Source: Elsinoe ampelina (taxonomy: Eukaryota). Taken from it: a stretch of DNA of 64,000 bases. The DNA lies in contig ML992501.1 of the NCBI GenBank assembly GCA_010093995.1, forward strand, positions 2,049,320 through 2,113,319, written 5' to 3'. The translations under genes were made by a program, and so were the position numbers. The notes beneath the pieces are model-generated. The model saw nothing but the letters and a program-made list of their open reading frames with translations, ran no database searches and was not told the DNA's origin. Shown here one piece after another: positions 4,384 to 51,896 of this stretch; position 1 is the stretch's first letter; each line of letters opens with the position of its first letter.

Positions 4384-5029
4384 AGGGACAGAAAGGGCAG
4401 TGTTAAGCCCATTGAGCACGTTTCTCATGCGAAGCCAGTACCGTGTACAACCCCAATTCGGTGTGGCGAATGATTCATTGTACTACACAGAAAGAAATGT
4501 GATTCAATCACAGTCCGCACGTCTGAGACTGGCATTCTCCCATTCCGCTCCGCAGTCCCCGCTCCCTTCGAACTTTCCACCCCCATGACACCCCTCATCG
4601 TCATGCCGTTCCGCCGGTCGGACTTGGCATAAGGTCACAGAACCCTCTTCTCTTGCCAGATTGAACTTTCTCCATCCGTCAGCCTGACATTGAAGGTACG
4701 TTTAAGCATATGACGACGACTACCACGTGTCTCCGAAGCTGAGCAGGTCAATGCTCGTCAACGGGCCAAATGGTTAGGTATTCACCAGGGTAGGCCCCTC
4801 TACGCTCTTTCCTCCGCTTCAGAGACCAATGCATCGACGAACCTCGCCTTTAGCGACCGCTTCACGGACTTCATCAACTGTACAGCGATCCTATCATTCA
4901 CGCCCTGAGCTCATCACACATTCCCACCCGCATCAGCAACGCCACCAGACCACCCCTACCCGGCCCACACCCTCACTCCCCCACCACCGTAGACACCTGA
5001 CAACCACAGCCCTCATCCACCGCCACATA

Positions 5030-5877
5030 ATGACCCGCGACACAATTCGCATGCTCGTCCTGGAAACCGACGAAAACCACCCAGCCGACAAGCGCGAAAA
5101 GGGCGGATTCGGCGACATATTCACCACCCTCTTCCGCAACGCAGGGGACAAACACTCGCCCCCTCTCGGCATCGACGTAGAAAGGCACTACGTTGTCGAC
5201 GACCCCTCCGCCGGACACAACGGACACGTCCCTCACGCGTCCGAGATCCCCGCCTCCACCACCGCCATCCTAATCACCGGCTCCACGTACGACGCGCACG
5301 GCGACGACCCCTGGATCGAATCCCCGCTCGGTCTCCTCCGCGACCTCTGGACCACGAGGCCGGAGATGAAGTTTAGCGGGGTGTGTGTTTCGGGCACCAA
5401 CTCCTGTCCCGCATGTTGGGCGCCAAGGTCGAGGGGCATCCCGGGGAGAAGTGGGAGCTGAGCCACACGAGTATGGACTTGACGGCTGTCGGGCAGAAAC
5501 TGTTCAAGACGCAGCAAGGGAAACTGTCCTTGCATCAAATGCACCAGGATCAAGTGACTACCGTCCCGGACAGGGCGTCTGCGAACGGTCTGCTGCGCGA
5601 AGGGCAGAAGGTGCATGTCTGGGCGAGGAGCGAGCATACCGCGGTGCAGGGGTTGTATGTTAGGGATAGACTGTTTTCGAGCCAGGGTCATCTCGGGTTT
5701 GATGCGAAGATGGAGCATCGCCAGATTGAGTTGAGGCAGGCGAGTGGGGGCATTCCCGAGGAGGATGGGGATGAGGTGAGTGAGGCGGCGGAGAAGGCGC
5801 ATTTGGAGCATGATGGGGAGGTGGTGGCGGGGGCGATATTGAGGTTCTTTCGTGGGGATGATCATGATGTTGATTGA
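5030..5877 (+). pseudogene. Class I glutamine amidotransferase-like protein interrupted by a 2-nt frameshift (pseudogene or sequence error)
   Basis: ILITGSTYDA in frame 1, then GVC/FGHQ split across frames at gtgtgtgt (5381-5388), then MHQDQV and SQGHLGF in frame 2; removing one TG restores GVCFGHQ. Confidence 0.8.
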
Positions 5878-6223
5878 GGGGTGCTGGGAGCGTGCAGTAC
5901 TGTCCTAGGATTCCAAGCAAGGGAAACCCCGGCTTTGGTGCTCGTAGATGCGGATCCAGCTCGCCAAAAGTAATACCAGCGATGTTCCCTTTCACGGCCG
6001 ATGAGCTCCAGGTTTTCCTGTTGGCTGAATATGGATGATGAGCTTCAGTCGTTTCCCCTGCGGCATCGTTGCTGTCGCATTAGGTCTGACAATTCGAGGT
6101 CATGGCTAGGCAGCGCATCTATCGCTCGGATGGACCCAATTGACCTGCGTTTTCACTAGTCGAACCAGAATAAGATCTCGAAGCCATGTCCATCAAGGTA
6201 CCTGACAAGCAGGTCTTTCCTAC

Positions 6224-7434
6224 TCATGTAGTCAGATAGTTGCGAGGATCAAGCTCCTCAATATCAGCACTCTTCGCCCTCCCCTCCCAGATCAACTCAG
6301 CGACCACCTTCCCCGTGATCGGCGCATTCTGGATGCCCCACTGATTATGTCCAGCCGCCAAAATCATTCCTTCAATCCCAGTGAAGCCGAGGAGAGGTCC
6401 CAACTCGGGGTCACGTCCGTCGACCTTCACGATTGGACGGAAACAAGCTTGTTGGGTGACCACCTCGCTTTTTGCTAGAACAGGCGAGACCAATGCCACA
6501 TTGTTCATGAGTTTTTGGCATCGCTCGGGATCGGAGAGGACGTCGCTACTAGATGGTGGGAGGTCGAGGCCGTAGTCTGTTTGGCCGCTGAGGTAGACTG
6601 TGCCATCTGGGCGGGGATAGATCTCGAGTTGGTTTGCCTTGTCGGTGTCGATGTGGCTAGGGTCGAAGAAGAGGATGTGGGGTGATATAGGTCGCGGAGG
6701 TCGAATGACAATGGAGTGGCTTTTCTCGCCACCGATGGGTGCTTGAGGAAAGAGTATGCTCGTCCATGGTCCGGCCGCGAGAATCACGTTGGTCGCTATC
6801 ACTTCTGAGAATACGGAAGTAAGCCCGTCCTCCATGGTCACGGATTGTACCTCGGTGCCGTCTGCCGAGTAGTTGATGCATCGAGCGATGGCATTCTTGA
6901 TACTGACACCTCTTCGCTGAGCCAAAATTGCCAGACTGGTCGTGAACTGATGAGGATGTACTTGTGCAGTGTTTTCAAGGGGTTTGTACCATTTGAAGAC
7001 GCTGTGGTCGACCCAGTCTATCGCGGCTGACACGGCAGTTCTATCGTCAGAGTCACCTAAGCGGCCATGTGTAGTATCGCAATCCGCAGAGAAGACCTTT
7101 CGATACCCCCAGCCATCCTCACCCCCATGCTCTGCGGCGAGCTCTGCATGTAACTTGAAGCTTGCAGAGGCGAGACAGTGTGGATCAGCCCAGGCAGCGA
7201 GACAGCCGGCAGCTTTACCAGAAGATCCTCCAGCGATATCTGAGGCTTCAATCAATGTTATGGTGTGATTGGAGGGGTCGAAATGTTCGTGTGACGCTAT
7301 GTAGTACGCACAGCAGCAGCCTATGACTCCACCCCCTGCCCATGATTAGCTGGATCGATCAAGTGGGAAGAATATTGCATACCGACAATTATGATGTGTT
7401 GCTTCTGTTTGTGGGTGGGGAGCTCAGAAGTCAT
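6224..7434 (-). CDS. FAD-dependent oxidoreductase, DAO family (Tda3-like)
   Basis: Spliced N-terminus HIIIVG/GGVIGCCCAYY (intron 7336-7382, GTATGC..CTAAT..CAG), SSGKAAG, AAGPWT, QACFRP, AAGHNQWGIQNAPITG. Confidence 0.9.
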
Positions 7435-7714: not shown

Positions 7715-9142
7715 TCACTCGATATCATCTTCATCTTGATGATCCCACCCCCTCCGCACACTAATAGCAACCCCATTCTGCCTACCCAGCTGCACCAACC
7801 GCTCCTGCATAGCAGGAAGCCACTCTCCCTCCTGCATCTCATCTATTTTCAAATGTAACCGTCCAAGAAGAGGTTGTGTCCGCCCTACATCTTCGATCCA
7901 GAGCACTATGGCTTCGAACATGGCGTCATCATCCCACTTGCTCAGCCATACCTCGTGTCGGAACTCGTTGACGATGGGTTCGTAGAGGTCATCTCTGATC
8001 GTAAGCTGTTCCAGATTCTCGGGTAGGATGTCGGCTATTCGGTTGCTGGTGGAGGGCTGGAAGCCTAGTAGGAAGGCTATGGGGATCTCGAGCTTCTTCA
8101 AGCGGGTGAGGTCTCGAAGACCGGCGAAGGAGCCGCTTATGTCCAGCTCGGGCAGAGTATAGTCGTCGCCACCGAGATGACATGCTGCTGTCAAGCAGAT
8201 ATCTGTCAAGGTTTTGCTGACGTGGTTGAACGAGGCGGCCAAAGCTGACAGGTCGAGGCGATTCGTGTAGTGTCTTGATCGGAGATCTGGGTGGTAGGAC
8301 CAGTCGTAATGTAGCTTTTGGAGAGATGGGAGGCAAATCAGGATCTCTGGGAGATGTCTCTCGCGGACTTCGCTCAGAGAAAGGCTGGTCAGGTTTGTCA
8401 ATCGTGGTCTGCTTCCGGGCCAGCGGATCGTATCAGGATTGTCTAGGTCCACCGTGAGAGTCTCGAGGTGCGGCAGGTAGAAGAATGGGAGGAGGTTGTC
8501 GGTATTCTCGCCTTGACAAAATGAGCCAGTGCCGATAAAGTCCCAGTAGAGCATGCAAGACAGCTCTTTGAGGTGTCCAAATCGAGGCGAAGAAGAATCA
8601 GCGTGGTGCGCCGTTGTGAACATGATGAAGTCGCCCAGGATGGAGGTTGATCTGGTGAAAGCAGTCTTCATAATCAGACGTTTGAGATGATTCAATTGTG
8701 ATACCATGAGTGCTAGAAAAGCGTCCATTGTGCCTTGGGCGACCCGTGCTTTCCATACCTGGGCAAAGGGCACAGCAAGGTCGTCAATGGCATTATGTGC
8801 CTCCACGAGATCCAAATCATCAGTCGGTACCCTCAGAACTCTATGACGTGCAGGATAGCCAGGAGTCATGTCGCCTCCTAAGGTCACGCTTTGCACATGA
8901 GCAGCCAGGTCAGGTCTTCGCAATATCGTTCGGACGAACGCTGCGATTGGTGGCGTTGTTGTTTCTGTCCACGTCCAAGCAATATGAGCGTACAGTCTGT
9001 GGCGGACATCGAAGGTCGTGCCTTTGCTCACGAGGGAGAGTGCCTGAAGATCGGGAGTGTCCAAGTATTGGAGAATCGAGTGCTGAGCATGCCCAACGCA
9101 TGCGTAAAGAGAGAGACGTTCTTTCCTCGCTGGCCCTGTCAT
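7715..9142 (-). CDS. F-box-like protein with leucine-rich C-terminal region
   Basis: 475-aa ORF; degenerate F-box (ILQYLDTPDLQALSLVSK), RTILRRPDLAAHVQSV and repeated LxxLxL segments. Confidence 0.7.
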   Translation of the reverse strand: MTGPARKERLSLYACVGHAQHSILQYLDTPDLQALSLVSKGTTFDVRHRLYAHIAWTWTETTTPPIAAFVRTILRRPDLAAHVQSVTLGGDMTPGYPARHRVLRVPTDDLDLVEAHNAIDDLAVPFAQVWKARVAQGTMDAFLALMVSQLNHLKRLIMKTAFTRSTSILGDFIMFTTAHHADSSSPRFGHLKELSCMLYWDFIGTGSFCQGENTDNLLPFFYLPHLETLTVDLDNPDTIRWPGSRPRLTNLTSLSLSEVRERHLPEILICLPSLQKLHYDWSYHPDLRSRHYTNRLDLSALAASFNHVSKTLTDICLTAACHLGGDDYTLPELDISGSFAGLRDLTRLKKLEIPIAFLLGFQPSTSNRIADILPENLEQLTIRDDLYEPIVNEFRHEVWLSKWDDDAMFEAIVLWIEDVGRTQPLLGRLHLKIDEMQEGEWLPAMQERLVQLGRQNGVAISVRRGWDHQDEDDIE

Positions 9143-14126: not shown

Positions 14127-14441
14127 GCCATCAGCCATTGAGCAGCGAGAGTAGCAAGAGGTGTCCACTTCCGGGCAATTACGGTCCTTTCCCACAAATG
14201 GCACGGTCCATTTACTTTGATAGCTTAGCCAGCATTGATAGCTCTCTGCCGCAGCAGGCAGAGATGAAGATTAGGTAGCACGATGAGCTTTGAATTGAGA
14301 TGGGCGAAAGCAGGGCTTTCCCCACATTGATCATCTGACGTCGCTCCCTCGACTGGTGGTGGTGATCTGACCTTGACAACCTTGCCGCCTTCCCTTCTCT
14401 TCTCCTCTCTCCTCTTCACAACCCCCCTCCTCAACCCAATC

Positions 14442-15081
14442 ATGCCTCAACTCCCCCCCGACACCGACGACGAAACCACCGATCCCCGCTCCCACCTCTC
14501 CGACTTCGCAGCCGACGCCCGCCGCCGCGCCTCCAGCTTCTGGGACAGCTTCTCCAACTTTGCCCTGCGCGACAACGTCCTCGAAGTCGCCGTCGGTCTC
14601 ATGTTCGTGACTCTTCTCCTCTGTCCCCCTTCCCCTCCCTCTCGTCCTGGACTAATCCCCACCTTCCCCTCCCAGATTCGCAACCTCCTTCACAACCCTC
14701 ACCACCTCCTTCGTCTCGGACATCCTCCTCCCCCTCCTCTCCCTCCTCCCCTTCATCTCCCACTCCCTCCCGGACGTCTTCCTCGTCCTCCGCCGCGGGG
14801 TCCTCTACTCGCAACACAAAATCCCGCGCTACAACACCGTGGAACAAGGCCTCGATGACGGGGCGGTGCTCTGGGCGTACGGACGCTTCCTCGACGCCGT
14901 GTTGAGGTTTGTCCTCGTGGCGTTGAGTTTGTTCCTCATCGCAAAGGCGTATGAGTGGGTGAGCAAGGACAAGGTGGTCAAGAGGCAGGTCAAGTGTAGG
15001 TATTGTAGGAAGTATATCAGTGAGAAGGCGAGGAGGTGTGTGAATTGCACGAGTTGGTTGGATGGGAGGGAGGATAAGTGA
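14442..15081 (+). CDS. mscL: Fungal MscL-like large-conductance mechanosensitive channel
   Basis: FALRDNVLEVAVGLI/FATSFT across intron 14603-14675; YGRFLDAVLRFVLV; C-terminal CxxC...CxxC. Confidence 0.88.
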
Positions 15082-15325
15082 TGATGGGTAGAGGGGAGGG
15101 GAGGGGAGGGGAGGGGGATGGTTGGCGAGATACCCAGATATGAATGATGAACCTGTTACAAAAGCAAGATCGCGGAACAGGGTGCGGCGAATGGGGGAGA
15201 TGGTCGAGGAAGAGTGCTAGTGCTTTGAGGATGCATACTGTCTATTCCACTCTTCATACTGTTATACTCGAGACATGCCCTCACAATCTGCTACTCATCC
15301 CCAGCGACTCAGGCACGTCCCACCT

Positions 15326-34520: not shown

Positions 34521-34831
34521 ATGGTTTCTGGTCTGACGAGCATACTATATGGCGTCGGGCACGGACGGGAGGTTTGGTCTTCTTGGTTCACGGCACTCTC
34601 ATGATGAAATTTGTTTCCGAGTGGATAAGAAAGGGGAGGATCTGCATTCCATCGAGCAACGGGCTCATGGATATCTTGGGATGGTACAAAACGGCTCTAG
34701 CCAGAGCGGCTTTTTAATTCGCTTCAATGTTTAGATACCTTTAGTGGAGAAGATGAATTTCGAACTTTTTTTCCCTTATGACTTTACTTCTGTCTTCTCA
34801 TGTCCTATTCTGCATCTGCTGTCTCATCACC

Positions 34832-37411
34832 CTAAACCCCAGCTCCTCCCCTCTCCCCCTCCCACAATATCCCATTCCTCACCACCCCCCTCTTCGTCCA
34901 ATGCTCATCCCCCTGTATAAAATCCCCCCTGACCACCTTGCCCCTCCCCGTCGTCCTCCTCCCCTCCCCGTCCTCGAACCGGACATACACCCCCTCGACC
35001 CTCCCCTCCCCGAACCGACTGCGCCTCTGCACCAACCCCCTCAGCTCGCCCTCCCCCACCCCGCGCCCGACCTCCCTCTCCTCCAAAACCGGCACGGCGT
35101 ACACCCCCGTCCCCTCCAGCGCCCGAACCAGCAATCTCCGCGACACGAACACCCTCTCCACGCGATCGTACAGGTCGAACGCCAGGAACGGCGCGGGGAG
35201 CGAGGTGTACGCCACGCTGTGCCGCGCGACGAGCCACTCGCCGTACAGCGTCCAGCGGTCGGGCATGTGTCCGTCCCGGCCCAGCACCCGCTTCAGGGCG
35301 GCCGAGTGGGTCGCGACCCAGGCGTCGAGGGGCCGGAATTGTTCGTGGTAGGACGAGGTGACGTGGTGCGAGCGGTTTTGGGCGAGGATGCGGGTGCCGC
35401 ATGAGGTGAGGGAGAGGCCGAGGTTGGCGCCGTCGAGTTTCTCTTCGATTGTGAGGCGGGATTGTTGGGCGTGGGTCTGGGTGGGGAGGGGGGAGAGGAT
35501 GTCGTCGGGCGTTGTGGCGCCGAGGTCGAGGAGGTGTGGGGTGCGGGGGAATTTGGTTAGTGGGAGGGTTGGGGTGGTGAGGAGGTGGAGGGCGGAGATG
35601 GAGGCGGGGAAGGAGGGGAGGGTGAGGATGGCGGAGAAGGGTTCGGTGAGGGTTGGTGGGGTGAGGGCGCGGGACATGGAGGTAAGGGCGTGGTGACCTG
35701 AACCGATGGGGATGGTGGGGTGGGAGAGGCGGGTGGCGATGCGTTGGGTGCAGATGGGAGGGGGAGAGGAGAGGTGGATGGCGATGACGAGGGAGGGGGA
35801 GGGGAGGAGGGAGAGGAAAGCCTGACGGTCGGAGGTGGAGGGGTTGCAGCGGTCTAGGATGACTAGGGCTGGGGAGTGAGAGCGGCCGATGGCTTCTTCG
35901 CAGGCTGAGCGGGAGCGGGTGGTGTCCTGGTTGATGATGACGGTTTTGAGCCCAAGGGCTTTGCGTCGTTTGGCGATTGCGATGCTGAGCCATGACTTGC
36001 CGGAACCAGGAAGGCCGACAAGGAAGATGTGAGTGACATCTGTGTTGAAGGCAACGTTGGAGCCCGGTGGCGTCGCGATGGTCATTGGCTCGGATGATTC
36101 TTCTGGGGTTGCTTCGGATTGAGCTACAAGCCATCGGTTTTGGATCCATTGACCGACGAAGTGCTCCTGGTCCTGACTTTCGATGCTTCCAGGCCGTAGT
36201 GATCGGATGGTAGATATGGCTGCGGTGGTGTCAAACTGCGGAAATGGTGTCGGCTCTTCTCCTGCTTCAGCATGCATGGCAATAAGGCAAGCAAGGACAG
36301 TGCCAGCACGACCTTTTCCACCGCCACAGTGAACAAGCCATACTGAGTCGGGTGAGTCAATGAAGCGAGAGTAGATGTAATCCATCTCTCCTCGAGTAGG
36401 AGCTTTCCAGTTTTCGACAGGTACGTAAACATTGGATATTGTCCTGAACTCAAACCACTGAACCGGCAGAGGTTCTTCTTTGGTGAGGGTAAGGACCGTG
36501 GTAATACCCAATCGTTGCAGAGTTTCAATATCCTCTTCTGACCGAGGCGTGCTCATTCCCGCTAAGCGATTCGGCAGTATCCAAGAGAAAAAACGTGGTA
36601 ATTCTACTTGATCAAGCCATTGGGGTTCGCGCGAGTGCTGAGGTGTCGTCCATAGAGTATGATTGCACGTCTTTAAATCAAGTAAAGGTCTTGGATCGAG
36701 TAGAGAAGCTCTGAGGCTAGTAGGCACACCAAGGAGTTCTAATTCTGTCAACGTGGGACCCCATGAGACAGTCCCATTGAGCTTCAGTAATTGCTTCATA
36801 ACGTATGCTACCAGCGAAGGGTCCAGATGGTAAGCACGAGCGTATGCCAGCATGGAAAGCTTAGGTTGGTCGTTCCTATTCATATCGGCGAGGCGAATGA
36901 ATGCTCTATGTGATTCTGGAAATCGTGCCGCCATCCATTCAGCGATGGTTGGATGAAGCTTGGTGCAGCTTGACAGAAGTATATGATCAAAAACGTCCTC
37001 AGACCAAGTATGTGATAAGCTTTCCGTGTCAATGAGACTGTTTATGCTTTTATCCAAATTGTGATTGTTGTTAGGCGTAATGGATATATGCAGGTGTGAG
37101 GGTAATATTCCCAGAGACCGCCGCCACTTGTCGACATGGTACCATACCACGACTATCCATCTGACATCAGGTCTTTCAGATTGTTGGCCTAGACCAAGAG
37201 CATGTAGGTACCTGACGTCCAAGGAGTCTCGAGACAATCGCGGCAGTTGCGGCTTGCCACATGTGACGTACTCGTCCTTGGTCAATAGAGTGATGTGTAA
37301 AGGATATCCCCGCTGGTTTGTGTCCTGCTCGGGAGCAAAATTTGACACTATCGTTGTCAAAGCAGCGTCGCCAACGAGGGCTACACCGCCTCGGTATTTT
37401 ATTACCTCCAT
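34832..37411 (-). CDS. Multidomain RNA repair protein: 2H phosphoesterase + CX5R phosphatase + P-loop polynucleotide kinase + ATP-dependent RNA ligase
   Basis: HITL and HISI; LVHCGGGKGRAGT and RPGSIE; GLPGSGKS and ILDRCN; KFPRTPHL, EEKLDGAN, YGEW, FDLYD, EGVYVR, KVVR; 859 aa, no intron. Confidence 0.9.
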   Translation of the reverse strand: MEVIKYRGGVALVGDAALTTIVSNFAPEQDTNQRGYPLHITLLTKDEYVTCGKPQLPRLSRDSLDVRYLHALGLGQQSERPDVRWIVVVWYHVDKWRRSLGILPSHLHISITPNNNHNLDKSINSLIDTESLSHTWSEDVFDHILLSSCTKLHPTIAEWMAARFPESHRAFIRLADMNRNDQPKLSMLAYARAYHLDPSLVAYVMKQLLKLNGTVSWGPTLTELELLGVPTSLRASLLDPRPLLDLKTCNHTLWTTPQHSREPQWLDQVELPRFFSWILPNRLAGMSTPRSEEDIETLQRLGITTVLTLTKEEPLPVQWFEFRTISNVYVPVENWKAPTRGEMDYIYSRFIDSPDSVWLVHCGGGKGRAGTVLACLIAMHAEAGEEPTPFPQFDTTAAISTIRSLRPGSIESQDQEHFVGQWIQNRWLVAQSEATPEESSEPMTIATPPGSNVAFNTDVTHIFLVGLPGSGKSWLSIAIAKRRKALGLKTVIINQDTTRSRSACEEAIGRSHSPALVILDRCNPSTSDRQAFLSLLPSPSLVIAIHLSSPPPICTQRIATRLSHPTIPIGSGHHALTSMSRALTPPTLTEPFSAILTLPSFPASISALHLLTTPTLPLTKFPRTPHLLDLGATTPDDILSPLPTQTHAQQSRLTIEEKLDGANLGLSLTSCGTRILAQNRSHHVTSSYHEQFRPLDAWVATHSAALKRVLGRDGHMPDRWTLYGEWLVARHSVAYTSLPAPFLAFDLYDRVERVFVSRRLLVRALEGTGVYAVPVLEEREVGRGVGEGELRGLVQRRSRFGEGRVEGVYVRFEDGEGRRTTGRGKVVRGDFIQGDEHWTKRGVVRNGILWEGERGGAGV

Positions 37412-40785: not shown

Positions 40786-41380
40786 TGTGTAGATAGTCAC
40801 TGTCAATAGTGTCCATAAATGACCAGAACTCAACGTTCGAGCATGACTCGATTTCGGCGGAAGATGTGCTGGAGCGGTGACCGGCATTGTGTGGTCTGGC
40901 CCGCTGCACGGCGGTGAGCGACATACTGAGGTGCACTTTGCCCGCTGCCTACGATTTAGGTTACCCCGCGATGCTTGATTACCGATTGGCGTTTACCTGT
41001 CACGTCACTCAAAGGTGCGACTCCCGTTCCCGCGATCAATCACGCGCCCCCTCCTCCAGCACTTCCATCGACTGATAGATTGGTTGCTCACCTAATGCCT
41101 GGCCCTTTGTGATACACCACCCTTTCTATTCCTTCCGCCGCCCTGCCTATCTCTTTTACTCCTCTGCTACGACGAGTGGGCCAGGACATCAATCGCTGTC
41201 ATGACTTGATCATTTGCTTACCCCGCCATATCCGCTTCCGCCCTATCCCTTGATACCGACATCTCCGCTTCTCTATCGTAGCGCGGATCAGACCGCCCGA
41301 CTCATACAGTGATCCGGCTATATATCGAGGCTTTTCAACTCCTACTGCGCCTTCTACATCCGCCTCTACCACCACCAACA

Positions 41381-42124
41381 ATGCCCTTTCCCACCCTACC
41401 CTCTCCACCGACTCTCTTCCCCACCTACCTCACTTCCCCACTCTCCTTCCGCCGCAAATCCAGCAGCGCCAGCACCAGCACCACCTCCAGCACCCTCTCC
41501 ACCTCACCGACTCTGTCCTCCTCACCGCCCGTCTCCCCCACCACACCAACTCCCACCTACCTCTCCGGCTCCACCTCCCGCCTCCGCTGCGCCCGCTGCC
41601 TCAGCGACCTCGCCCTCTCCTCCCAAATCATCAGCAAAGGCTTCACCGGCCGCCACGGGCGCGCATACCTAGTCGCACCCTCATCATCACTCACCTCCCC
41701 CCTCCCAATCCAGAACCCCTTCGCCTCCTCCCCGCCGAATCCTCGACACAAAAAGGGCGACCTCCCGAACACGTACACCCACCGCGCCGTGCCCCGCCAA
41801 CTCGTCACGGGCCAGCATACCGTGGGGGATATATCGTGCGCGCAATGCGGGAGCGTGCTGGGGTGGAAGTACGTGGCTGCCGAGGAGGAGGCGCAGAAGT
41901 ATAAGGTTGGGAAGTTTATCCTCGAGGGGAAGAGGGTGGTGAGTTGGGGGGGATGGGATGGGGAGGTGGAGGGGTTGGGAGGGGAGGGGGAGAGGGGGAA
42001 GGGGACGGAGGAGGAGGTGGAGTTTGATAGTCAGGATGAGGACGAGTGTGAGGATTTGTTTATGGGGGTTTGGACGCCTGAGACGGCGAGGAGGAGGAGG
42101 AAGGGGAGGTTTGGGAGGGTTTGA
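41381..42124 (+). CDS. Yippee/Mis18-family zinc-binding protein
   Basis: CARC..IISKGFTGRHGRAYL; QLVTGQHTVGDISCAQC..LGWKY..QKYKVGKFILE. Confidence 0.92.
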   Translation: MPFPTLPSPPTLFPTYLTSPLSFRRKSSSASTSTTSSTLSTSPTLSSSPPVSPTTPTPTYLSGSTSRLRCARCLSDLALSSQIISKGFTGRHGRAYLVAPSSSLTSPLPIQNPFASSPPNPRHKKGDLPNTYTHRAVPRQLVTGQHTVGDISCAQCGSVLGWKYVAAEEEAQKYKVGKFILEGKRVVSWGGWDGEVEGLGGEGERGKGTEEEVEFDSQDEDECEDLFMGVWTPETARRRRKGRFGRV

Positions 42125-42601
42125 CTGGGTGATTGGTGAAGGGATGGTGGGCATATTACATGACAGAGATACCCTACTTACGATTGGATGTTGTTTCTTT
42201 GGGTGTTTATGGTCGGGTATGGTGGGAGGCGTTGGAAAGGATACACTAATCAGATTGATGGCATCGATACCCCTGATGAATATACGAAACATTGCTTAAC
42301 GCCACTGTATTTGACTGCGAGCTCATAATGGTGTTCATAGGTCATCCGAAAATCTTGAATTGGTAGTCATGTTGTGTTTATGTGAAAGTAAGTCATCGAC
42401 TCTCTGCCAAAAATTCCCCCAGCACCTCACCGCCAAGACACCCCACTCACGACATCACTCATCCCACTTCTGCCTGAGGTCCATCTAGAAACAAGTCACA
42501 CAACCCTCTCTGATCAACATTACCTTTCGCACACTTGACCCAACATCTTCTTCAGCTCACAATCCGACACAACCTCTCATACGAAGTAACAGAACATCGA
42601 G

Positions 42602-43328
42602 ATGCAGATCAAGTATGTCCTCCCCTCCTCATGAGTCCTCATTCCCGCCTGCGCCTAATTAAGACCCCACCATACCTCTCATCATCCCTCCTCACCACCT
42701 TCTTCCTCTCTTCATGCCTTCGCCATACTTTCTCCCTGCCTCCCCCTACCTTCGCCTACCAAGCCTTCCCGATCCCATCCGCCACTGACATATCCCCCCC
42801 AGAGTCCGCACCCTCACGGGCAAAGAAATCGAGCTGGACATCGAGCCCGACTACAAAGTCAGCAGGATCAAGGAGCGCGTCGAGGAAAAGGAAGGCATCC
42901 CGCCTGTACAGCAGAGGTTGATCTACGGGGGGAAGCAGATGTAGGTTCCTCTTTTACTTGCACACACACTTGGGAAGGGGTGGAGTTGTCGGAGGGGGAG
43001 TGAGATGACTAGAGAAGGAGGGAGAGGGAGAGGGAGGAAGTGCATAGTTGGCCAAGAGGAGGAGGGAGATGTGCGTGAGGTGGAAGTCTATCGGGGCGTT
43101 CGGGAGGAGGGGGAGTGCCAGATGGGGACGAAGAGGGAGGCGAGACAGATCGGTCGACGAGGGAGGCTTTCAAACGCCCTTCTAATTCAATGGACAGGTG
43201 TAGACCGGGAGTCGTAGACTACGGGACTGACTTTGCATAACAGGAACGACGACAAGACGGCCGCAGAGTACCAGCTCGAAGGCGGCGCCACCCTGCATCT
43301 GGTCCTGGCGCTGAGAGGCGGACGATGA
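42602..43328 (+). CDS. NEDD8: NEDD8/Rub1 ubiquitin-like protein (3 exons, not in the ORF track)
   Basis: Exons 42602-42612, 42803-42940, 43244-43328 give [77 protein letters not shown]. Confidence 0.97.
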
Positions 43329-43768
43329 TCGAGCACGATGAGCACGATGGAAAGGCCTGAGGGACATTCGAGAGGCAGGGAAGGACGAAGCTACAGTGAT
43401 GGAGCTACAGTGATGGAGACGTCTACGCTTGGTCCTGCAGTCAAGATGGCTCAAACATGACGAGAGCACGGCAGTGACGGAGGCTAGCTAAGGAGGCATA
43501 CATGGCGTTCGGATATCTGAGCGAATCTATTCGACATTGACATTGACTATTCTTTCTCTAGTGAGATGTCTTGTTCTTGTCCAAATTGACAGGTGTGATT
43601 TCTACAAAAGACCGATACAAAACTCGCTACAAGACTCCGCCGATTTTCTGGCTAAGCATGCCCCAAAGCCTTACCGCAATGCATCCAATGCCCAGGCCCG
43701 AACCAAACACCGCCCATGCAGTCATCACTCATTTACACCCTCCCTCCTTCCCCCGCCCCGCCACACCC

Positions 43769-44932
43769 CTACCCAACCTTCCTCTTCTTCTGCGCCATGA
43801 AAATATTCGGCGCCTTCCTCTTCACCGCCTGCCCCGTCGCCACCACCGGCGGAGGCTGCGGCGACCTACTCTTCTCCCCGTCCTCCACTCCCTGCCTCTT
43901 CTCCGGCGAAGCAGACACTCCCGGCGATGGTCCGCTCGCCCCTTTCCCCATCCCTCCCGCCTTCGGCACCCCCAGCCTCCCCTTCCCCTCGGGAGACGAC
44001 GCCCTCTTCTCCGCCTTGGCAGCGATCAACCTCTCCGCCTCCTTTGTCTGCCTCGCTCGGTTCTCCTTCTCGATCTTGATGGCCAGGTTCAACGCCTCCT
44101 GCCCCGAGCGATTCGAGGACGCAGTGCCCCGGAAGGGGTTGCGCATCTGTGCCCGCGAAACAGGTTGCGGGCGAGAGGCGGCTTGGTATTTGGCCGTGAG
44201 ATGCGCGGCCGAGGGAATGTGCACGCTTGAGGCTGGCAGGCCGGCGCGTTTGGCGTAGTCTTGGACCATTTTGGCGGGAGCTTGGGAGACGGTGCCGCGG
44301 TTGGCGGCGAGGTCGAGGTGGGCGGGGCGGACGGGTTGGGCGTTGCGTGAGGCGGAGGGTTTGGTGAATTTTTTGGCGATGGAGCGGGTCATGGCTGTGA
44401 CGGCGGTTTGGCGGCGGAGGGTTTTGAGGGCGTCCATGCCGACGGTGCGCCGGGAGACGCCGTGGTCGAGCTTGGTAGTGGTGCGGGCTTCGGGGAGGAC
44501 GGAGTGGAGGATGGTGGACTTGTTGGATTCTTTCTTTGCTGCTTGGGCGCCGAGGGCGTTGCGGAGCTGGTCTTCGGCGTCTTTTTGGGCGGCTTCATCT
44601 TCGCGCTTGAGTTTGCGGTAGACTTTCCACCAGAGAGCGGCGTTCTTGGGTTCGACCTTCTTCTTCTCCCAGTCGGGAATGTCTCGGCGGATGAGAGCTT
44701 TCCAGGCCTCAGCCGTGGCGGGCAGGCCAACGATCTGAGGGGATTCGATTTCGAGGTTTCGGAGTTGTGTTGGCGAGGAGACTTTCTTGATGATTTGTGG
44801 TAGTAGATGGGGAGCCAGGTCGGCAAAGGTCATGATGTCGTCCACATGCTTGATTGCTACTCGTCGAGACATGGAGACTAGTGATGGCACCCCTTTGGTC
44901 GAGTTTTCTTGATAATGCATAGAGGAAGCCAT
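43769..44932 (-). CDS. ELA1: Elongin A (RNA polymerase II elongation factor SIII subunit A family)
   Basis: BC-box-like VPSLVSMSRR, QLRNLEIESPQI, WKALIRRD, WWKVYRKLKRE; basic C-terminus. Confidence 0.8.
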   Translation of the reverse strand: MASSMHYQENSTKGVPSLVSMSRRVAIKHVDDIMTFADLAPHLLPQIIKKVSSPTQLRNLEIESPQIVGLPATAEAWKALIRRDIPDWEKKKVEPKNAALWWKVYRKLKREDEAAQKDAEDQLRNALGAQAAKKESNKSTILHSVLPEARTTTKLDHGVSRRTVGMDALKTLRRQTAVTAMTRSIAKKFTKPSASRNAQPVRPAHLDLAANRGTVSQAPAKMVQDYAKRAGLPASSVHIPSAAHLTAKYQAASRPQPVSRAQMRNPFRGTASSNRSGQEALNLAIKIEKENRARQTKEAERLIAAKAEKRASSPEGKGRLGVPKAGGMGKGASGPSPGVSASPEKRQGVEDGEKSRSPQPPPVVATGQAVKRKAPNIFMAQKKRKVG

Positions 44933-45349
44933 CTTGGAAGAAGTCACTCTTCAGCTCTGATCTATGAGATTTCTAGGCGCCCTGGTCACAAGGATGCAGT
45001 CGTACAACTCCGTCGAGCTGAGTACAAAGAGATCCTACGACCGGTCGACGTGGCTGACTATGGCGGGAATGGAAAGGTGAGAACAAAGAAGTACTCGTAC
45101 AGATCATTGTTGATACATAATTATACCGGAAGAGTATATCACATGATGAGGAAATACAAATGTGGGTGATGCGAAAAGGAACGTAGCAAAAGAAGTGTGA
45201 TCTGAATTGATGAAGTTGAGTTGCTGTTGGACCTCGACATGTGCTCCCCGACCAGCTGGCGCCCAGTCGCTAGCGCAAAGCCAAATTGCAGAAGCTCACA
45301 TCTTCTCCAGTACTCGGCATACCACAACCTTCTACACAACCAGGAAATC

Positions 45350-46968: not shown

Positions 46969-47132
46969 TTTGGATGATCTCTTGTGAATTTGTGAGGTGT
47001 GGGAAGGTAATTGTGAATGTGACTGAGGTGTTGTCCTTGGAGGAGAAACAAATATTTCTCGAAGCTTGCCCCACTATTGTTCCATTGTCATGCAGGCACT
47101 TCGGCTAAAAATCACGCTAGAGGCACGTCTTG

Positions 47133-47148
47133 ACGCGTCGCGCGTAAA
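47133..47148 (+). promoter_or_regulatory. MluI cell-cycle box (MCB) cluster upstream of MCM4
   Basis: acgcgtcgcgcgtaaa about 110 bp before the MCM4 ATG; ACGCGT is the known G1/S element of fungal replication genes. Confidence 0.65.
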
Positions 47149-47253
47149 GTGGCAGACGGAAACCCCTGTCCTCAATTATACAGCGCTTCCAGAAGTTCAT
47201 GCTCGCTATCGCTCTCCTACACCATCTTCCACCGCCAATTCTCACAGCATACA

Positions 47254-50200
47254 ATGTCGTCGCCGGCTTCACGTCGCACTGCGACTCCACGAAGATCGAA
47301 TCAGTCTGCTGCCCCTGAAAGCAGCCCTCTCCAACCCGGCTTTGGACCGGACGACCAGCTCAGATCAGAAGCCTCACAAGCATCAAATCGCCAGCAATCA
47401 CAAGAGACGCCACGAGGGAACCGCACATCACAAGAGACATCGCAGAATCCTCCGACCTCATCGCCTCTATTCTACCAATCTTCTCCGGCTAATGGAGCTG
47501 CCTCGAGGTCGCTCAATGGAGCGCTCAACGTTGCCAATGGCATCGGTATGAGCTCGCCCCTGCGCATGTCATCCGAGCCACCCGTCGATGATGCTCAGAC
47601 ACCAAGACCGAGCGGCATCACAAATGGAGGTGAGTATAAAAATGTCAAAACCTGGCCGACAAGGCTGACCTGAAGCGCAGAATCCTCTCCAATTAGATAC
47701 ACATCAAGCTCGAGTGTTGTTGGCGCGCCTCGAACGAACGGAAACCGCACAGATGCCCTTCGTAGCGAGAGCTCTGGTCTCTTCGTACGATCTCCAGGTA
47801 ATTCTGCTCGCAACCGACGACATGACATTCAGTCAGATATTCTCGGCTCAGGAGGAGCTAGGAGGCGGCAAGTATTTGTCGACGAGAATGGCATGCCGGT
47901 CCCAGAAGGCTCGGATGCCCCGACCTTTTCAAATCTTGATCCGACCACATCTGATGCTGAGGGCATGTCTGGACATCCGAAGAAGATGGTGTGGGGAACA
48001 AATATCAACTTGGACGAGACGATGAGCAACATGAGAGACTTTCTCCGCAACTTTACCAGAAAATACCGCATGTACGCAGATGGAGAGCTCGAGAGTCTGG
48101 AGGGTTTACCACAAGATCATCCAGGTAACGAGAAGGTATACATGCCTTTGTTGGAAACGTTACTGGATCTTGGTACGCTGGCCGTCAATCTCGATCTGAA
48201 GAATCTGAAGGCGTATCCTCCGACGTTCAAGTTGTGGCATCAATTGCAGAACTATCCTGCTGAGATCGTTCCCGCTTTCGATGTTGCTGTAAAGGACATC
48301 ATGTACGAACTCGCAGGGAAGAGGATGAACGAGATGGCGGCAGCTGCTCGGGCCGCGCTGAACGATGATCGTGGTAGTTCAATGCCTCCAGCACCAAGCT
48401 CAGAAGCTGGCAATCAGCCACCGGCTAATGCTCAGATCGCCCCACTGAATGATATTCCCAACCTGAGACTGGAGGTCGAGAATCGGCCATACAAGATTCG
48501 CCCCTTTGGACTGGAAAAGACGATAAACCTCCGAGATTTAAATCCAGAAGACATGGACAAGCTTGTCAGCATCAAAGGACTCGTGATTCGGACGACACCA
48601 ATCATCCCAGACATGAAAGAGGGTAGGTCTCATCGCTCAAAGGTCTTCCATATCCACTGACGATCAAACAGCCTTCTTCAAATGTGCTCTCTGCGCACAT
48701 GCTCTTTTGGTGGACATCGACAGAGGCAAGATCACCGAGCCGACTCAGTGTGACCGATGCAAGAAGCCAAACACGTTCCAGATTGTGCACAATCGCTCAC
48801 ACTTCTCGAACAAGCAAGTCATCAAGCTTCAGGAGACTCCTGACAGTGTCCCGGATGGGCAAACACCGCACTCGGTATCGCTTTGCACGTACGACGAGCT
48901 TGTTGACGTGTGCAAAGCTGGAGACAGGGTTGAGATCACTGGCGTATTCCGCTGCAATCAAGTCAGAATCAATCCCCGACAACGGTCGGTGAAGAACATT
49001 TTCAAGACATACGTTGATGCAGTGCATATTCAGAAGGTCGACAAACGACGGATGGGCATCGACGTGTCGACTATTGACGAGGAGATGACCGAGCTCACAG
49101 CTGGCAAGATCCAAGAGTCTCGGAAGGTCAGCGAGGAGGAAGAGGCGAAGATCAAGGAGGTTGCAGCTCGCCCTGACGTATACGAGCTTTTATCACGCTC
49201 CCTCGGGCCCAGCATCTATGAGTTGGACGACGTCAAGAAGGGCATCCTCCTTCAGCTGTTTGGCGGCACCAACAAATCATTCGAGAAAGGCGGGTCACCC
49301 AAATACCGTGGCGACATCAACGTCCTACTTTGTGGCGACCCTTCTACGGCCAAGTCTCAGCTCCTTCAATACGTCCACAAGATCGCACCTCGCGGCGTCT
49401 ACACGTCAGGCAAAGGCTCCTCCGCCGTCGGTCTCACAGCCTACGTGACCCGCGACCCAGAAACCCGCCAACTCGTCCTCGAATCCGGTGCTCTCGTCCT
49501 CTCCGACGGCGGAGTCTGCTGCATCGACGAATTCGACAAAATGTCCGACGCCACTCGCTCCGTCCTCCACGAAGTCATGGAACAACAAACCGTCTCCATC
49601 GCCAAAGCCGGCATCATCACGACCCTAAACGCCCGCACCTCGATCCTCGCCTCCGCCAACCCCATCGGCTCCAAATACAACCCCGCCCTCCCCGTCCCGC
49701 AAAACATCGACCTCCCCCCCACCCTCCTCTCCCGGTTCGACCTCGTCTACCTCGTCCTCGACCGCATCGACGAAATGAACGACCGCCGCCTCGCCAAGCA
49801 TCTCGTGGGGATGTACCTCGAGGACACGCCCGACCACGCACAAACCACCTCGGACATCCTCCCCGTCGACTTCCTCACGGCGTACATCTCCTACGCCCGC
49901 TCCAACATCCAGCCCCGCATCGGCGCCGCCGCCGCCGACGCCCTCGTCACGCACTACGTCGCCATGCGCGCGCTGGGCACGGACGTTTCGGCGTCCGAGA
50001 AGCGAATCACCGCCACGACGCGGCAGTTGGAGTCTATGATTCGGCTCAGCGAGGCGCACGCGAAGATGCGCCTCAGCGAACGGGTCGAGGAGAGTGACGT
50101 CCTGGAAGCAGTGAGGCTTATCAAAGCGGCGCTCAAGCAGGCCGCGACGGACGCGCGCACGGGGCTGATTGATATGAGTTTGTTGACCGAGGGGACGAGT

Positions 50201-50452
50201 AGTGGGGAGCGGAGAAGGAAGGAGGACCTCAAGGGGGCGGTGGTGGGGTGGTTGGATGAGGGGCTGAGGACGGGGCAGGGGAGTGTGAGGGTCGTGGATT
50301 TGGTCAAGGGGATTAGTGAGAGGAGTTCGGTCGGGGTGGAGAAGGGGGAGGTGGAGGAGGCGTTGAGGGCGTTGGAGGGGGAGGGGAGGGTGGTGGTTAG
50401 TGGGGAGGGGGGGAGGAGGAGTGTGAGGCGGGTGACGGGGGTTAATGGTTGA
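47254..50452 (+). CDS. MCM4: DNA replication licensing factor MCM4
   Basis: S/TP-rich N-terminus, KGLVIRTTPIIPDMKE, GDPSTAKSQ, CCIDEFDKM, LLSRFDL, TTRQLESMIRLSEAHA; introns ~47629-47680 and ~48623-48671. Confidence 0.97.
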
Positions 50453-50781
50453 TCGTCTAGCGTGGGAGATGTTGTGTAATGATGCATGGGAGGTGTTGGT
50501 TGGAAGGGTCACGTGTAATGCATGAATATATGGCTTGATATCCTGCTGATACTACCAAAGTGCAGTCACTGTCCAAATAGAGGTCATAGTTGCGAAGGAC
50601 ATATCTTGATCTTGAGTGATACTTTTACACGAGTACTACAAGCGCATGAGAAGAGTTTCATTGACCCCGTCCCCATACCAGACGCCACTGCGCTTGATGC
50701 GAGCTTCCCTCCCTGCCGCTATTTATGTGCATTTTGCCCCTTTCGCCATCGCCTTCTCCCGTTTCCGCATCACCCGCCGCC

Positions 50782-51896
50782 TTAATTCTCCCTCTTCTTC
50801 GCCTTGTCGCTATTGCTCATGGCCACGTTCAACCCCAAACCTTCCGTATCCAAGTACACTCTGTTCTGACTCTTCTCCAACACACTCGCGATCTGCTTGG
50901 CGTTCTCAAACTCCCTCAGATCTACATACGTCCTGCTCTTCTTGATCGCGTCACCGATGAGCTGCGCCGAGCGAGCCTCACCCTGCGCCCTGACCACCGT
51001 GGCCTGCTTCTCCTGCCGCGCCTTGTCGACGACGAACGCCGCCCTTTGCGCCTCTTGCTGCGCGACCTGCTTCGCCTCGACTGCGGCGGTGAATTCGGGG
51101 GAGAAGGCGAGGTGCGTGAGCGAGACGTCGTCGAGGAGGATGTTGAAGCGGGCGGCGCGCTTTGTGAGTTGGTCGCGCACGAGACGGGAGACGTTCTCGC
51201 GCTGGGTGATGAGTTGGGAGGCGTTGAATTGGGCGACGACGGATTTGAGGACTTCGTTGACGATCGAGGGGAGGACGCGCTCGTCGTAGTCTGTGCCGAG
51301 GGTGCGGTAGATTTGGGGGAGGGCGTCGACTCGTGGCCGTGAGAGCACGCGGCAGGTGATGTTCACCATTTGGAGATCTTTGGTGCCGGTGAGAGAGGCG
51401 ACGTTGCGTGGTTTGGCGCGGACGTCGTAGACGATGGGCGTCTCGAACCAGGGGAGTCGCAGGTGGGTGCCTTCGTTGTAGATCTCTTGTTGCACGCCGC
51501 CTAGGCGGGAGTATTTGACTGCTCTGCAACCACCGTCGACTGTAGAGGATTAGAATGGATATCTTGGCGTTGCTGCCGGAGGAGAAGCCTTCGTACCGTT
51601 GAATAGAGCATTTTGGAAGACCCATACGCCTCCCAAACCCGCCGCGAGTACTGCGAAGCCACCTAGTGCCCGTAGAGGTCCTGGTCCACCACCTCCTCCA
51701 CCGAATCTGCGAGCAGCGTCAGCAAATGTCTTCATATATCCACTACACCACCACGTCCAGGAACGAAGCAATAGTCCCGCTAAAGTGTCCCGAGACAGTC
51801 CGCTTCTGCAGGAAGGTTGACGTACCTGGCTCCTTGCTTTTGCAACTGGTTGACCCTGTCTTGCATCGTCTTCCACATCTCCTGGGGATCCGACAT
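50782..51896 (-). CDS. PHB2: Prohibitin 2
   Basis: NALFN/VDGG, EGTHLRLPWFETP, TGTKDLQMV, AVEAKQVAQQEAQRAAFVV, AQGEARSAQLIG; two 5' introns. Confidence 0.93.

Follow-up and report, generated by a model that had tools for sequence, protein, structure and literature searches.

Sharp C-to-G strand flips near the 3' ends of genes in Elsinoe ampelina, a probable extreme form of fungal gene polarity

Introduction

In a 64 kb stretch of the genome of the grapevine-pathogenic fungus Elsinoe ampelina (hereafter the window), eight units of about 1 kb change sharply from C-rich to G-rich at a point inside a gene and a few hundred nucleotides before its stop codon. These units are a gene-anchored compositional polarity and not free-standing sites. 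They probably represent an extreme, sharply two-part and GC3-rich form of the gene polarity described in fungi by McLean & Tirosh (2011; PMC3315797), with strand-asymmetric mutation or repair coupled to RNA polymerase II as the likeliest cause. The cause of the fungal 5'-C/3'-G polarity has been open since 2011, and the polarity itself has so far been a genome-wide average, the exceptions in the portion of that paper drawn on here being a single C. albicans region given as an illustration and counts of genes with a significant skew. In E. ampelina, it comes near to saturation in single genes and the flip can be placed to tens of bases. Together with the adjacency of affected and unaffected genes in the window and a possible link to convergent packing, this makes the competing causes, namely a transcription-coupled mutation regime, R-loop-based termination and recombination, directly testable.

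Results

Flips were called with 400-nt flanks, D being the right minus the left value of (G-C)/W. The eight C-to-G peaks obtained (Table 1) have D values of 0.40-0.77 and lie close to the positions proposed in the earlier note (5350, 14870, 35250, 41820, 42900, 44140, 49970 and 51070; largest offset 83 nt), so that the sharp flips are confirmed as real and fixed in place. The C arms contain C at 0.40-0.52 and G at 0.10-0.20, and the G arms G at 0.37-0.55 and C at 0.09-0.22, the window average being 0.27 per base. With a threshold for strong flips of at most -0.2 in the left arm and at least +0.2 in the right arm, seven C-to-G and two G-to-C flips were called, the flip at 5348 narrowly failing (right arm 0.15). 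Both strong G-to-C flips (~42300 and ~50600) are junctions of neighbouring units; the remaining G-to-C peaks found with 400-nt flanks are outer borders of units. Permutation of 25-, 50- or 100-nt blocks (500 each) yielded means of 0.00-0.03 flips, while that of 400-nt blocks with random strand (2000 times) yielded means of 0.53 and 0.40 and never attained eight.

The shape about each flip is roughly odd-symmetric, with peaks ~200-300 nt from the flip and a balanced, CpG-rich centre, and the skew is gone within 0.4-0.8 kb. In the affected genes, the coding strand is C-rich for ~400-800 nt before the flip. The G+C content of the eight units is 0.55-0.68, compared with ~0.52 in their surroundings, and their GC3 is 0.78-0.93; G+C falls sharply to 36-47% in the spacer and decays gradually on the upstream side. 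A blastn comparison among the eight units revealed no repeat family, the only matches being low-complexity stretches of 27-103 nt and overlaps of adjacent extracts.

Table 1. C-to-G units and G-to-C junctions in the window. The flip is the C-to-G peak obtained with 400-nt flanks.
Feature	Positions	Strand	Host gene or location	Flip	Flip to stop (nt)
Unit 1	4550..5980	+	glutamine-amidotransferase-like gene, stop 5877	5348	529
Unit 2	14340..15240	+	MscL-like gene, ~14440-15081, one inferred intron	14838	243
Unit 3	34790..36050	-	3'-terminal 1.2 kb of 'Swiss Army Knife' (SAK) gene, 34832-37435	35295	463
Unit 4	41020..42250	+	whole Yippee-family gene, CDS 41381-42124	41821	303
Unit 5	42390..43546	+	whole NEDD8/Rub1-like gene, ATG 42602, stop 43330	42817	
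Unit 6	43600..44950	-	Elongin A-like gene, 43769-44950	44107	338
Unit 7	49350..50520	+	3'-terminal 1.1 kb of MCM4, stop 50452	50021	431
Unit 8	50611..51540	-	terminal exon of Band 7/SPFH gene, stop 50782	51081	299
Weaker unit, same kind	7715..8500	-	unnamed 495-codon ORF (orf495), stop 7715	7966	251
G-to-C junction	42250..42390	.	between Yippee G arm and NEDD8 C arm		
G-to-C junctions, same kind	~43550-43600; 50520-50610	.	spacers between convergent 3' ends		

The gene models and the classification of neighbours are manual and draw on ORFs, Pfam matches and a small number of RNA contigs. Unit 1, the sense strand of which is C-rich up to 5347 and G-rich from 5348, has a Pfam GATase match on the ORF 5377-5874, the start of the gene being undefined, and unit 2 has a Pfam MscL match (E=7.5e-10) on the ORF 14656-15078. 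The SAK gene contains 2H, PTP, kinase and RNA-ligase domains, and its GC3 is 0.81-0.88 within unit 3 versus 0.48 upstream. The flip of unit 4 falls within the conserved Yippee domain, and the locus is covered from 41125 to 41921 by a contig that is probably RNA. The NEDD8/Rub1-like gene has a C-rich intron (42613-42802) and a G-rich intron (42941-43243), and an RNA contig with GT..AG intron joints ends there in a loose A-run, marking poly(A) at 43546. The C arm of unit 7 sits in the AAA+ core of MCM4, which is 97-100% conserved. Further upstream introns are present in the Band 7/SPFH gene (51540-51596 and 51707-51825), where an RNA contig with CT..AC joints ends at 50611. The weaker unit in orf495 has a third-position skew difference of +0.81. 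The G-to-C junctions are AT-richer spacers and not features of their own.

The earlier note had described the switches as independent of gene orientation. A C-then-G unit is its own reverse complement and reads the same on both strands, for which reason the constant polarity is uninformative on this point, and the independence itself did not hold once the flips were placed in sense orientation: all eight strong flips are intragenic, 243-529 nt upstream of the stop codon of the host gene. The chance of eight random positions each landing 200-600 nt upstream of some stop among the 30 is ~1.6e-6, for a range picked after seeing the data. Stop-anchored sense profiles have the identical C-then-G shape for + and - genes. 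Over the 30 genes, the 3' minus upstream skew averages +0.153 (null s.d. 0.029; 0/20000 random anchor sets as high) and is positive in 22, ranging from +0.29 to +0.70 in the eight strong genes. The G arms terminate ~100-200 nt past the stop; the G skew of the NEDD8 gene stops at the poly(A) loose end, and the arm of the Band 7 gene that is C-rich on the + strand begins at the RNA-contig end. The units are therefore anchored both at stop codons and at transcript ends.

Protein constraint does not explain the pattern, which, as had been claimed, covers synonymous sites, introns and UTRs. At third positions, C reaches 0.53-0.75 in the C arms and G 0.54-0.75 in the G arms (~70% C and then ~70% G), the values in the upstream controls of MCM4 and SAK being 0.26-0.38 for C and 0.22-0.29 for G. 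The order of the bases at these positions is C>>A>G>T in the C arms, with A3 above T3 in 5/5 genes, and G>>T>=C>A in the G arms, with T3 above A3 in 6/6 genes, and the two spectra are mirror images; over all sites, unlike at third positions, the A/T asymmetry is inconsistent. The introns and the 3' UTR of the NEDD8 gene are skewed in the same sense as the flanking exons (intron 1, C 0.48 and G 0.09; intron 2, G 0.42 and C 0.15; 3' UTR, G 0.33 and C 0.19). The codon-shuffle control that the earlier note had asked for agrees with this: for each of the five genes tested, the observed flip was reached in 0/2000 synonymous-codon shuffles, and the 35-65% of the flip that remains in the shuffles is the portion carried by the protein.

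The skew also measurably alters protein ends. For the MCM4 tail, the amino acids imply a G skew of 0.42 in the window, as against 0.35-0.38 in proteins of Elsinoe and Sphaceloma and 0.29 in Myriangium, with 0.25 +/- 0.06 over 120 homologues, and the implied skews of the MCM4 tail and of the Yippee ends each lie beyond those of nearly all of 120 homologues. The C-rich arms are, in addition, an annotation hazard, giving rise to long spurious ORFs in several frames.

Strong polarity is found in about a quarter of the genes (~8/30), with orf495, DAO and Cullin intermediate at third positions. The mean skew difference of the other 22 genes is +0.031 (Wilcoxon p=0.06), and the third positions of 14 other genes give +0.11 (p=0.14). 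Strength is correlated with GC3, the strong units having the highest values (Spearman 0.61, p=0.006, 19 ORFs). The impression that most switches lie beside convergent gene ends was correct for 7/8 strong genes: 7/14 genes with convergent neighbours carry a strong unit, compared with 1/16 in tandem (Fisher p=0.01, Mann-Whitney p=0.003), and the 3' ends of the enriched convergent neighbours are 245-439 bp apart. In the window, units are absent from the convergent pairs involving Ribophorin/zf-DNL, THOC7 and GHcc, the last being GC3-rich and C-skewed all the way to its stop and lacking a G arm. In MCM4 and SAK, the two long genes, the strong C arm does not begin at the 5' end; it begins mid-gene, 1.1-1.2 kb from the 3' end, together with a jump in GC3.

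In the syntenic contig of a relative, 723/8792 positions (8.2%) differ over a long block and 78/925 (8.4%) in the Yippee unit. Of 901 differences recorded, 40 were considered one by one; the stretch 41407-41677 contains 27 differences, 22 of which are at third positions, with a net G-C change of only 7. The polarity units are thus old and persist in a relative that is ~8% diverged.

Discussion

The arrangement of the units would be accounted for if mutation or repair coupled to RNA polymerase II were strand-asymmetric and AT-to-GC-biased, with a strand preference that reverses once the polymerase reaches the final ~0.5 kb of the transcription unit. On the coding strand, such a process would favour T>C upstream and A>G in the terminal part, and its strength would vary by gene, being greater where convergent 3' ends lie 250-440 bp apart. 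Transcription is the most likely cause, and a mutational origin of the bias is likewise more probable than selection. The suggestion of fixed sites of strand-asymmetric mutation or repair, made in the earlier note, is sound in that the sites are fixed in place and an asymmetric process is their likeliest cause; they are, however, anchored to genes and are not origins. Since only ~8/30 genes are strong, a general transcription-coupled process must be strongly gene-specific. The mid-gene start of the C arm in MCM4 and SAK counts against a process of this type, and so does the odd symmetry of the profiles, which is what a point source would give. The GHcc gene with its missing G arm, and the GC3 richness of the strong units, opposite to the correlation in the part of McLean & Tirosh (2011) used here, are further observations on the same side.

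A possible, if unlikely, alternative sees the units as modules based on R-loops or G-quadruplexes, either selected or self-reinforcing, that terminate transcription where genes are tightly packed. Over the last 0.5 kb, the sense polymerase would encounter a non-template strand rich in G and slow down ahead of the poly(A) site. Antisense read-through from a convergent neighbour would pass first through C-rich and next through G-rich sequence, as the C arm has a G-rich complement, and would be halted before the gene body; if the displaced strand were exposed, a mutational feedback could come in addition and lead to an all-or-none state. The enrichment of strong units in convergent pairs fits such modules, as do the mirror-image arms, which present C and then G to both directions of transcription, and an all-or-none distribution compatible with feedback. 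Moreover, all 19 clusters of canonical G4 motifs in the window fall in skewed arms, 18 in the eight strong units and one at a weak flip near 31724, although G4 motifs follow from composition alone. R-loop or G-quadruplex potential, in line with the structures proposed in the earlier note, is present; specific fold-back pairing, proposed there too, found no support. Against the modules, selection would be required at hundreds of silent and intronic positions in each gene, most of the G arm precedes the poly(A) site and falls within the coding region, and several convergent pairs lack units. Humans offer an analogue in ~2000 closely spaced genes that are GC-skewed and form R-loops at the 3' end (Ginno et al., 2013; Genome Res 23:1590; PMC3787257), but their enrichment is stronger for tandem than for convergent neighbours. 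It is distinctly unlikely that the units act as two-way transcription roadblocks that have arisen from a self-reinforcing loop of R-loop/G4 formation and strand-biased mutation. RNA polymerase II would then face a C-rich and subsequently a G-rich non-template strand from either direction, sense transcripts would end at the gene end, convergent read-through would be stopped ~1 kb in and the feedback would render the state all-or-none and heritable across species splits. If true, this would provide a mechanism, tied to gene packing, for the unexplained fungal 5'-C/3'-G polarity.

Stable meiotic (or mitotic) double-strand-break or recombination hotspots, at which GC-biased gene conversion would raise G+C and the strand identity of single-stranded or heteroduplex DNA would reverse at the break to leave a mirror-image skew, are a very unlikely source. 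Mutation clusters that switch strand as a result of bidirectional resection at double-strand breaks, and the nucleotide skew around mouse meiotic hotspots, share with the units a mirror-image strand asymmetry extending a few hundred bases either side of a point, and the discreteness of the units, present in some genes and absent from others, their raised G+C and GC3, their roughly odd-symmetric shape with its balanced centre and the conservation of position in the relative, which is expected of hotspots not governed by PRDM9, all conform to this type of origin. The units are also local G+C peaks of 1-2 kb, as hotspots or GC-biased gene conversion would produce, but such peaks are not specific to hotspots. 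On the other hand, the model offers no reason for a break to fall 243-529 nt 5' of the stop in 8/8 cases, in GC-rich coding DNA instead of AT-rich, nucleosome-poor spacers, and the centres appear to go with stop codons and not with open chromatin. The polarity appears to be opposite to that left by cytosine loss on 3' single-stranded tails, because, given the established direction of resection, the C-rich strand is the one with its 3' end pointing to the flip. Whereas the C arm fades gradually, the G arm ends abruptly at the transcript end. The signal is a composition at a fixed equilibrium and not a recent mutation cluster, and divergence is 8.4% in the one Yippee unit and 8.2% over the long block. 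The hotspot suggestion of the earlier note has nothing specific in its favour. Bidirectional replication origins with a G-rich leading strand, also suggested there, are practically untenable. C followed by G on the + strand is the skew polarity at bacterial origins, and the G arms combine T>A with G>C at third positions; however, bacterial switches operate on the scale of replichores and not of 1 kb, and the flips at 41821, 42817 and 44107, and those at 50021 and 51081, are merely 1.0-1.3 kb apart. All flips are within coding exons or introns, at positions that go with those of stop codons, and none displays what is expected of an origin, namely a single switch per replicon or per tens of kilobases, in non-coding DNA, with skew reaching the next terminus. 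Selection for a long hairpin, in which the C arm folds back on the G arm in mRNA or DNA, is scarcely credible. For the 800-nt units, highly stable folds are predicted (-266 to -376 kcal/mol, with 56-84% of pairs inter-arm), but base shuffles within the arms give nearly equal energies (z +0.09 to -3.1, for 25 mononucleotide shuffles per unit that ignore the extra stacking of G and C runs) and the inter-arm pairs average 179 in the real units against ~180 in the shuffled ones. No inverted-repeat homology between arms was detected by blastn among the eight units beyond low-complexity matches.

Comparison with known systems

The human terminal GC skew resembles the units in that a subset of genes, enriched where neighbours are close, has a coding strand with positive skew at its 3' end, and the skew may start before the poly(A) signal (Ginno et al., 2013). 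In the part of that study considered here, the human skew has its maximum near or past the transcript end and lacks a strong C-rich arm ahead of it, and R-loops were measured, whereas the units of E. ampelina are known from sequence composition.

The closest counterpart is the pattern in which the two ends of genes, 5' and 3', have opposite GC skews, averaged over ~60 fungi (McLean & Tirosh, 2011; BMC Genomics 12:638; PMC3315797), a data set that includes filamentous Dothideomycetes and in whose species list Elsinoe is absent. The strong part of the polarity in the long genes of the window is limited to the last 1.1-1.2 kb, and it is seen gene by gene, with a very high amplitude at third positions and a sharp flip. 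The units are GC3-rich and their third-position A/T asymmetry reverses at the flip, whereas in the account given by McLean & Tirosh skew correlates negatively with G+C content and AT skew is flat along genes; these mismatches concern secondary correlates and not the defining pattern. The association with convergent neighbours lies outside the scope of that account. In both cases, the coding strand of the gene body is C-biased and gives way to a short G-biased 3' region that reaches into the UTR, fourfold or other degenerate sites, amino-acid usage and non-coding transcribed DNA are all affected, and the polarity belongs to a fraction of genes, described as 'many but not all genes' in the fungal survey, which amounts to 33% in C. 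albicans and to 8/30 with strong polarity in E. ampelina.

Compositional flips

The GC skew of a sliding profile passes from about −0.5 to +0.6 inside 1 kb at several places in the window, with the G+C content reaching 0.60–0.69. Eight strong C-to-G flips were located using 400 nt flanks, together with four weaker ones (see the table), and every strong peak lies within 83 nt of a switch reported in an earlier note, the observation of which is real and striking. Each unit comprises a C-rich arm (C 0.40–0.52, G 0.10–0.20) and a G-rich arm of mirror-image composition, with arm lengths of about 400–800 nt. At a cut-off of at least 0.2 on both sides there are seven C-to-G and two G-to-C flips; the two G-to-C cases are mere junctions at which adjacent units meet. 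Block shuffles produced practically no flips at this cut-off, and permutation of 400 nt blocks with random strand gave means of 0.5 (C-to-G) and 0.4 (G-to-C) and never eight. A repeat or mobile-element origin was rejected: matches between units are of low complexity only, and the units are therefore compositional rather than copies of an element.

Flips and other features of the window (positions in nt; arms free of stop codons are examples)
Feature	Position	Strand	Gene or content	Flip to stop (nt)
Strong flip	5348		GATase-like	529
Strong flip	14838	+	MscL-like	243
Strong flip	35295	−	SAK	463
Strong flip	41821		Yippee	303
Strong flip	42817		NEDD8/Rub1-like	513
Strong flip	44107		Elongin A-like	338
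Strong flip	50021		MCM4	431
Strong flip	51081		Band 7/SPFH	299
Weak flip	7966
Weak flip	13399
Weak flip (region 21500–22750)	22237	−	ABC-transporter ORF
Weak flip	31724
Arms without stop codons	4778–5461, 34757–35404, 41254–41904, 43565–44258, 49222–50097
AT-skew domain	11250–12250		orf375, −0.27 to −0.39
AT-skew domain	28750–29750		inside cullin gene, +0.21 to +0.31
ORF	13344–14126	+	Gly/Asn/Ser-rich repetitive protein
Two ORFs	22816–25339	−	Indigoidine_A-like; PfkB kinase
Gene	32919–34520	+	GHcc
ORF	34832–37435	−	SAK, 867 codons
Two genes	41381–43330		Yippee and NEDD8
Intron	42940–43244		NEDD8 intron 2
Exon	48617–50449		MCM4

Anchoring to stop codons and transcript ends

The polarity shared by + and − genes, which had been taken as independence from gene orientation, was observed, but the independence does not follow. 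C-then-G is its own reverse complement, so equal polarity in + and − genes is no sign of gene independence; a pattern that follows the coding strand would look precisely like this. When 29 hand-made gene models were aligned in the sense orientation at their stop codons, the strong genes displayed about 500 nt of C-rich sequence, the flip and 250–500 nt of G-rich sequence ending 100–200 nt beyond the stop. The unit at 14838, at first without a known gene, lies in an ORF that matches the Pfam family MscL and stops at 15081. Eight random positions would all fall 200–600 nt upstream of any of 30 stops, a range chosen post hoc, with a probability of about 1.6 × 10⁻⁶. Subtracting the skew of the upstream part from that of the 3′ end gives a mean of +0.153 over 30 genes, a value reached by 0 of 20 000 random anchor sets. 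At the 3′ edge of the units the G+C content falls abruptly to 36–47%, while upstream it decays gradually, and the G skew of NEDD8 ends at a poly(A) loose end at 43546. The latter comes from run X3, probably RNA, of which GT..AG joints and this one A-run loose end were used, whereas depth and stretches lacking coverage were left out of the interpretation.

The weak flip near the 5′ end of an ABC-transporter ORF, away from stops, breaks the 3′-anchored rule. That at 13399 arises because a GGN-rich coding sequence follows a C-rich leader; the ORF concerned begins with a signal-peptide-like segment and matches no Pfam family.

Site classes

Codon third positions, introns and the 3′ UTR are all affected. 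In clean frames, third positions are 53–75% C in the C arms and 54–75% G in the G arms, against 26–38% C and 22–29% G in the upstream parts of the same genes. The C arm of MCM4 falls in the AAA+ core, which is 97–100% identical across Elsinoe-group proteins, and its skew is thus synonymous. NEDD8 intron 1 has C 0.48 and G 0.09, intron 2 has G 0.42 and C 0.15 (limits of both introns from GT..AG joints of the probable RNA run) and the 3′ UTR has G 0.33 and C 0.19. Within-gene synonymous-codon shuffles reached the observed flip in 0 of 2000 cases in each of five genes and retained 35–65% of it, which indicates that amino-acid usage is shifted too. An artefact of protein composition is rejected by these lines of evidence, which bear out the earlier view that protein constraint does not explain the flips.

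A contig of run X16, from a relative referred to as organism D, joins the exons on either side of NEDD8 intron 2 at its exact GT..AG limits, so that X16 must contain spliced RNA or cDNA from a relative 92–97% alike. Organism D, with its short, low-depth contigs, was left out of the comparisons.

Distribution among genes

A universal pattern across the genes of the window was not supported: the flip is strong in eight genes, takes intermediate values at third positions in orf495, DAO and cullin and is near zero in the remainder. The other 22 genes average +0.031 (p = 0.06), and the value for third positions in 14 ORFs is +0.11 (p = 0.14). The strong units have the highest GC3, 0.78–0.93 (Spearman 0.61, p = 0.006). 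In two long genes the strong part occupies only the last 1.1–1.2 kb; the GC3 of SAK rises from 0.48 upstream to 0.81–0.88 in the last 1.2 kb. The reported proximity to convergent gene ends was confirmed, with seven of the eight strong genes in convergent pairs whose stops are 245–439 bp apart. According to neighbour classes from the hand-made gene models, strong units mark 7 of 14 convergent and 1 of 16 tandem genes (Fisher p = 0.01, Mann–Whitney p = 0.003). GHcc, a GC3-rich glycosyl-hydrolase-core gene (G+C 0.62–0.66), maintains a uniform C skew of about −0.2 to its stop; a G arm is missing, even though the gene forms a convergent pair with SAK, which is strongly flipped. Two domains of AT skew without GC skew were also observed.

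Age of the units

The units have persisted across a species split. A 66.7 kb contig of a relative, organism C (runs X12 and X13), is syntenic on 41013–51999 with about 840 substitutions, too few to erase arms in which G and C differ by about 150 per 400 nt. Differences were tallied by base for 40 of 901 rows, all in 41065–41677 and from one C arm; in 41407–41677 of this arm, 27 differences, 22 of them at third codon positions, shift G−C by 7. Together, these figures indicate that the units are older than the split from organism C. The NEDD8 introns did not align with this relative. For the MCM4 tail, the amino acids imply a G skew of 0.42 in this window, compared with 0.35–0.38 for proteins under the names Elsinoe and Sphaceloma, 0.29 for Myriangium and 0.25 ± 0.06 across 120 homologues. 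The Yippee protein is S/T/P-rich at its start and G/E/D/R-rich at its end throughout the Dothideomycetes, a bias that here exceeds all but 3–4 of 120 homologues.

Gene content and gene models

The window is gene-dense and comes from a filamentous ascomycete. Pfam searches on 59 ORFs returned ordinary eukaryotic housekeeping genes, including MCM4, cullin, ribophorin I, VTC, NEDD8 neighbours, Elongin A, THOC7, Band 7 and arginase. Over its whole length the MCM4 exon shares 98% identity with a protein named E. ampelina by its source, and all 40-residue bins are 100% identical apart from the first, where residues derived from an intron are included; identities to proteins named E. fawcettii, E. 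australis, Sphaceloma murrayae and Myriangium duriaei are 92, 91, 88 and 85%, respectively.

Several arms are free of stop codons in multiple frames and on both strands, giving long overlapping spurious ORFs that are a hazard for automatic gene calling. The SAK ('Swiss Army Knife') ORF combines 2H phosphoesterase, dual-specificity phosphatase, P-loop kinase and RNA ligase domains (PF22547, PF22784 and PF09414). A 311-residue protein named S. murrayae (P0122) carries both ubiquitin and Yippee domains, and its gene model is probably a fusion of the Yippee gene with the adjoining NEDD8 gene; if so, the two are neighbours in that species too. The adjoining same-strand Indigoidine_A-like and PfkB ORFs are probably a single fused pseudouridine-metabolism gene.

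Possible mechanisms

The tie to stops and transcript ends, the involvement of every site class, the mirror-image spectra of the arms and their survival through a species split are established here, whereas the cause is inferred. On balance, the units are probably the product of mutation or repair coupled to RNA polymerase II, which would be strand-asymmetric and AT-to-GC-biased and would come to favour the opposite strand over the last ~0.5 kb of the transcription unit. Such a process does not account well for three features, the all-or-none distribution, the rise in GC3 and the point-like symmetry, and these lend weight to two rivals. The units may be putative R-loop/G4 roadblocks, selected or self-reinforcing, as the enrichment in convergent pairs and the location of all 19 of the window's 19 G4-motif clusters in arms would suggest, and yet we consider this rather unlikely. 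Stable recombination hotspots are improbable, since nothing in that model would place them at a constant distance from stops, and the polarity is opposite to that of cytosine loss on resected 3′ tails.

The gene-independent origins or hotspots proposed in the earlier note were not supported; the flips are tied to stops, and their spacing of about 1 kb inside exons excludes replication origins in practice. Selection for fold-back, another of its proposals, fared no better: after mononucleotide shuffling within arms (25 per unit) the sequences fold almost equally well and form as many inter-arm pairs, and a specific hairpin, rejected against this control, is very improbable.

Comparison with known systems

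According to the main text of McLean & Tirosh (2011; PMC3315797), most of some 60 fungi share a polarity of the coding strand: C prevails at the 5′ end or along the greater part of the gene, and G in a short 3′ stretch that often extends into the UTR. Degenerate sites, amino-acid usage and the noncoding DNA alongside all carry this polarity, and the share of genes in which it is significant is limited (33% in C. albicans). Filamentous Dothideomycetes were surveyed, Elsinoe not among them, and literature searches turned up no description of the pattern in Elsinoe or another Dothideomycete beyond that paper. Its authors weigh mutation regimes that differ between initiation, elongation and termination, or else selection related to CTP supply, without settling on a cause.

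All of the defining features set out there occur in the window, which very probably displays the same phenomenon; the polymerase-coupled cause is less secure than this identity. Compared with the main text, the window stands out in amplitude and sharpness, in the 3′-anchored length scale in long genes, in its high GC3, in a third-position A/T asymmetry that reverses and in the tie to convergent neighbours. In humans, closely spaced genes offer an analogue, namely terminal GC skew accompanied by 3′ R-loops (Ginno 2013). The flips provide a strong new example of a fungal gene polarity that has been described before but not explained.
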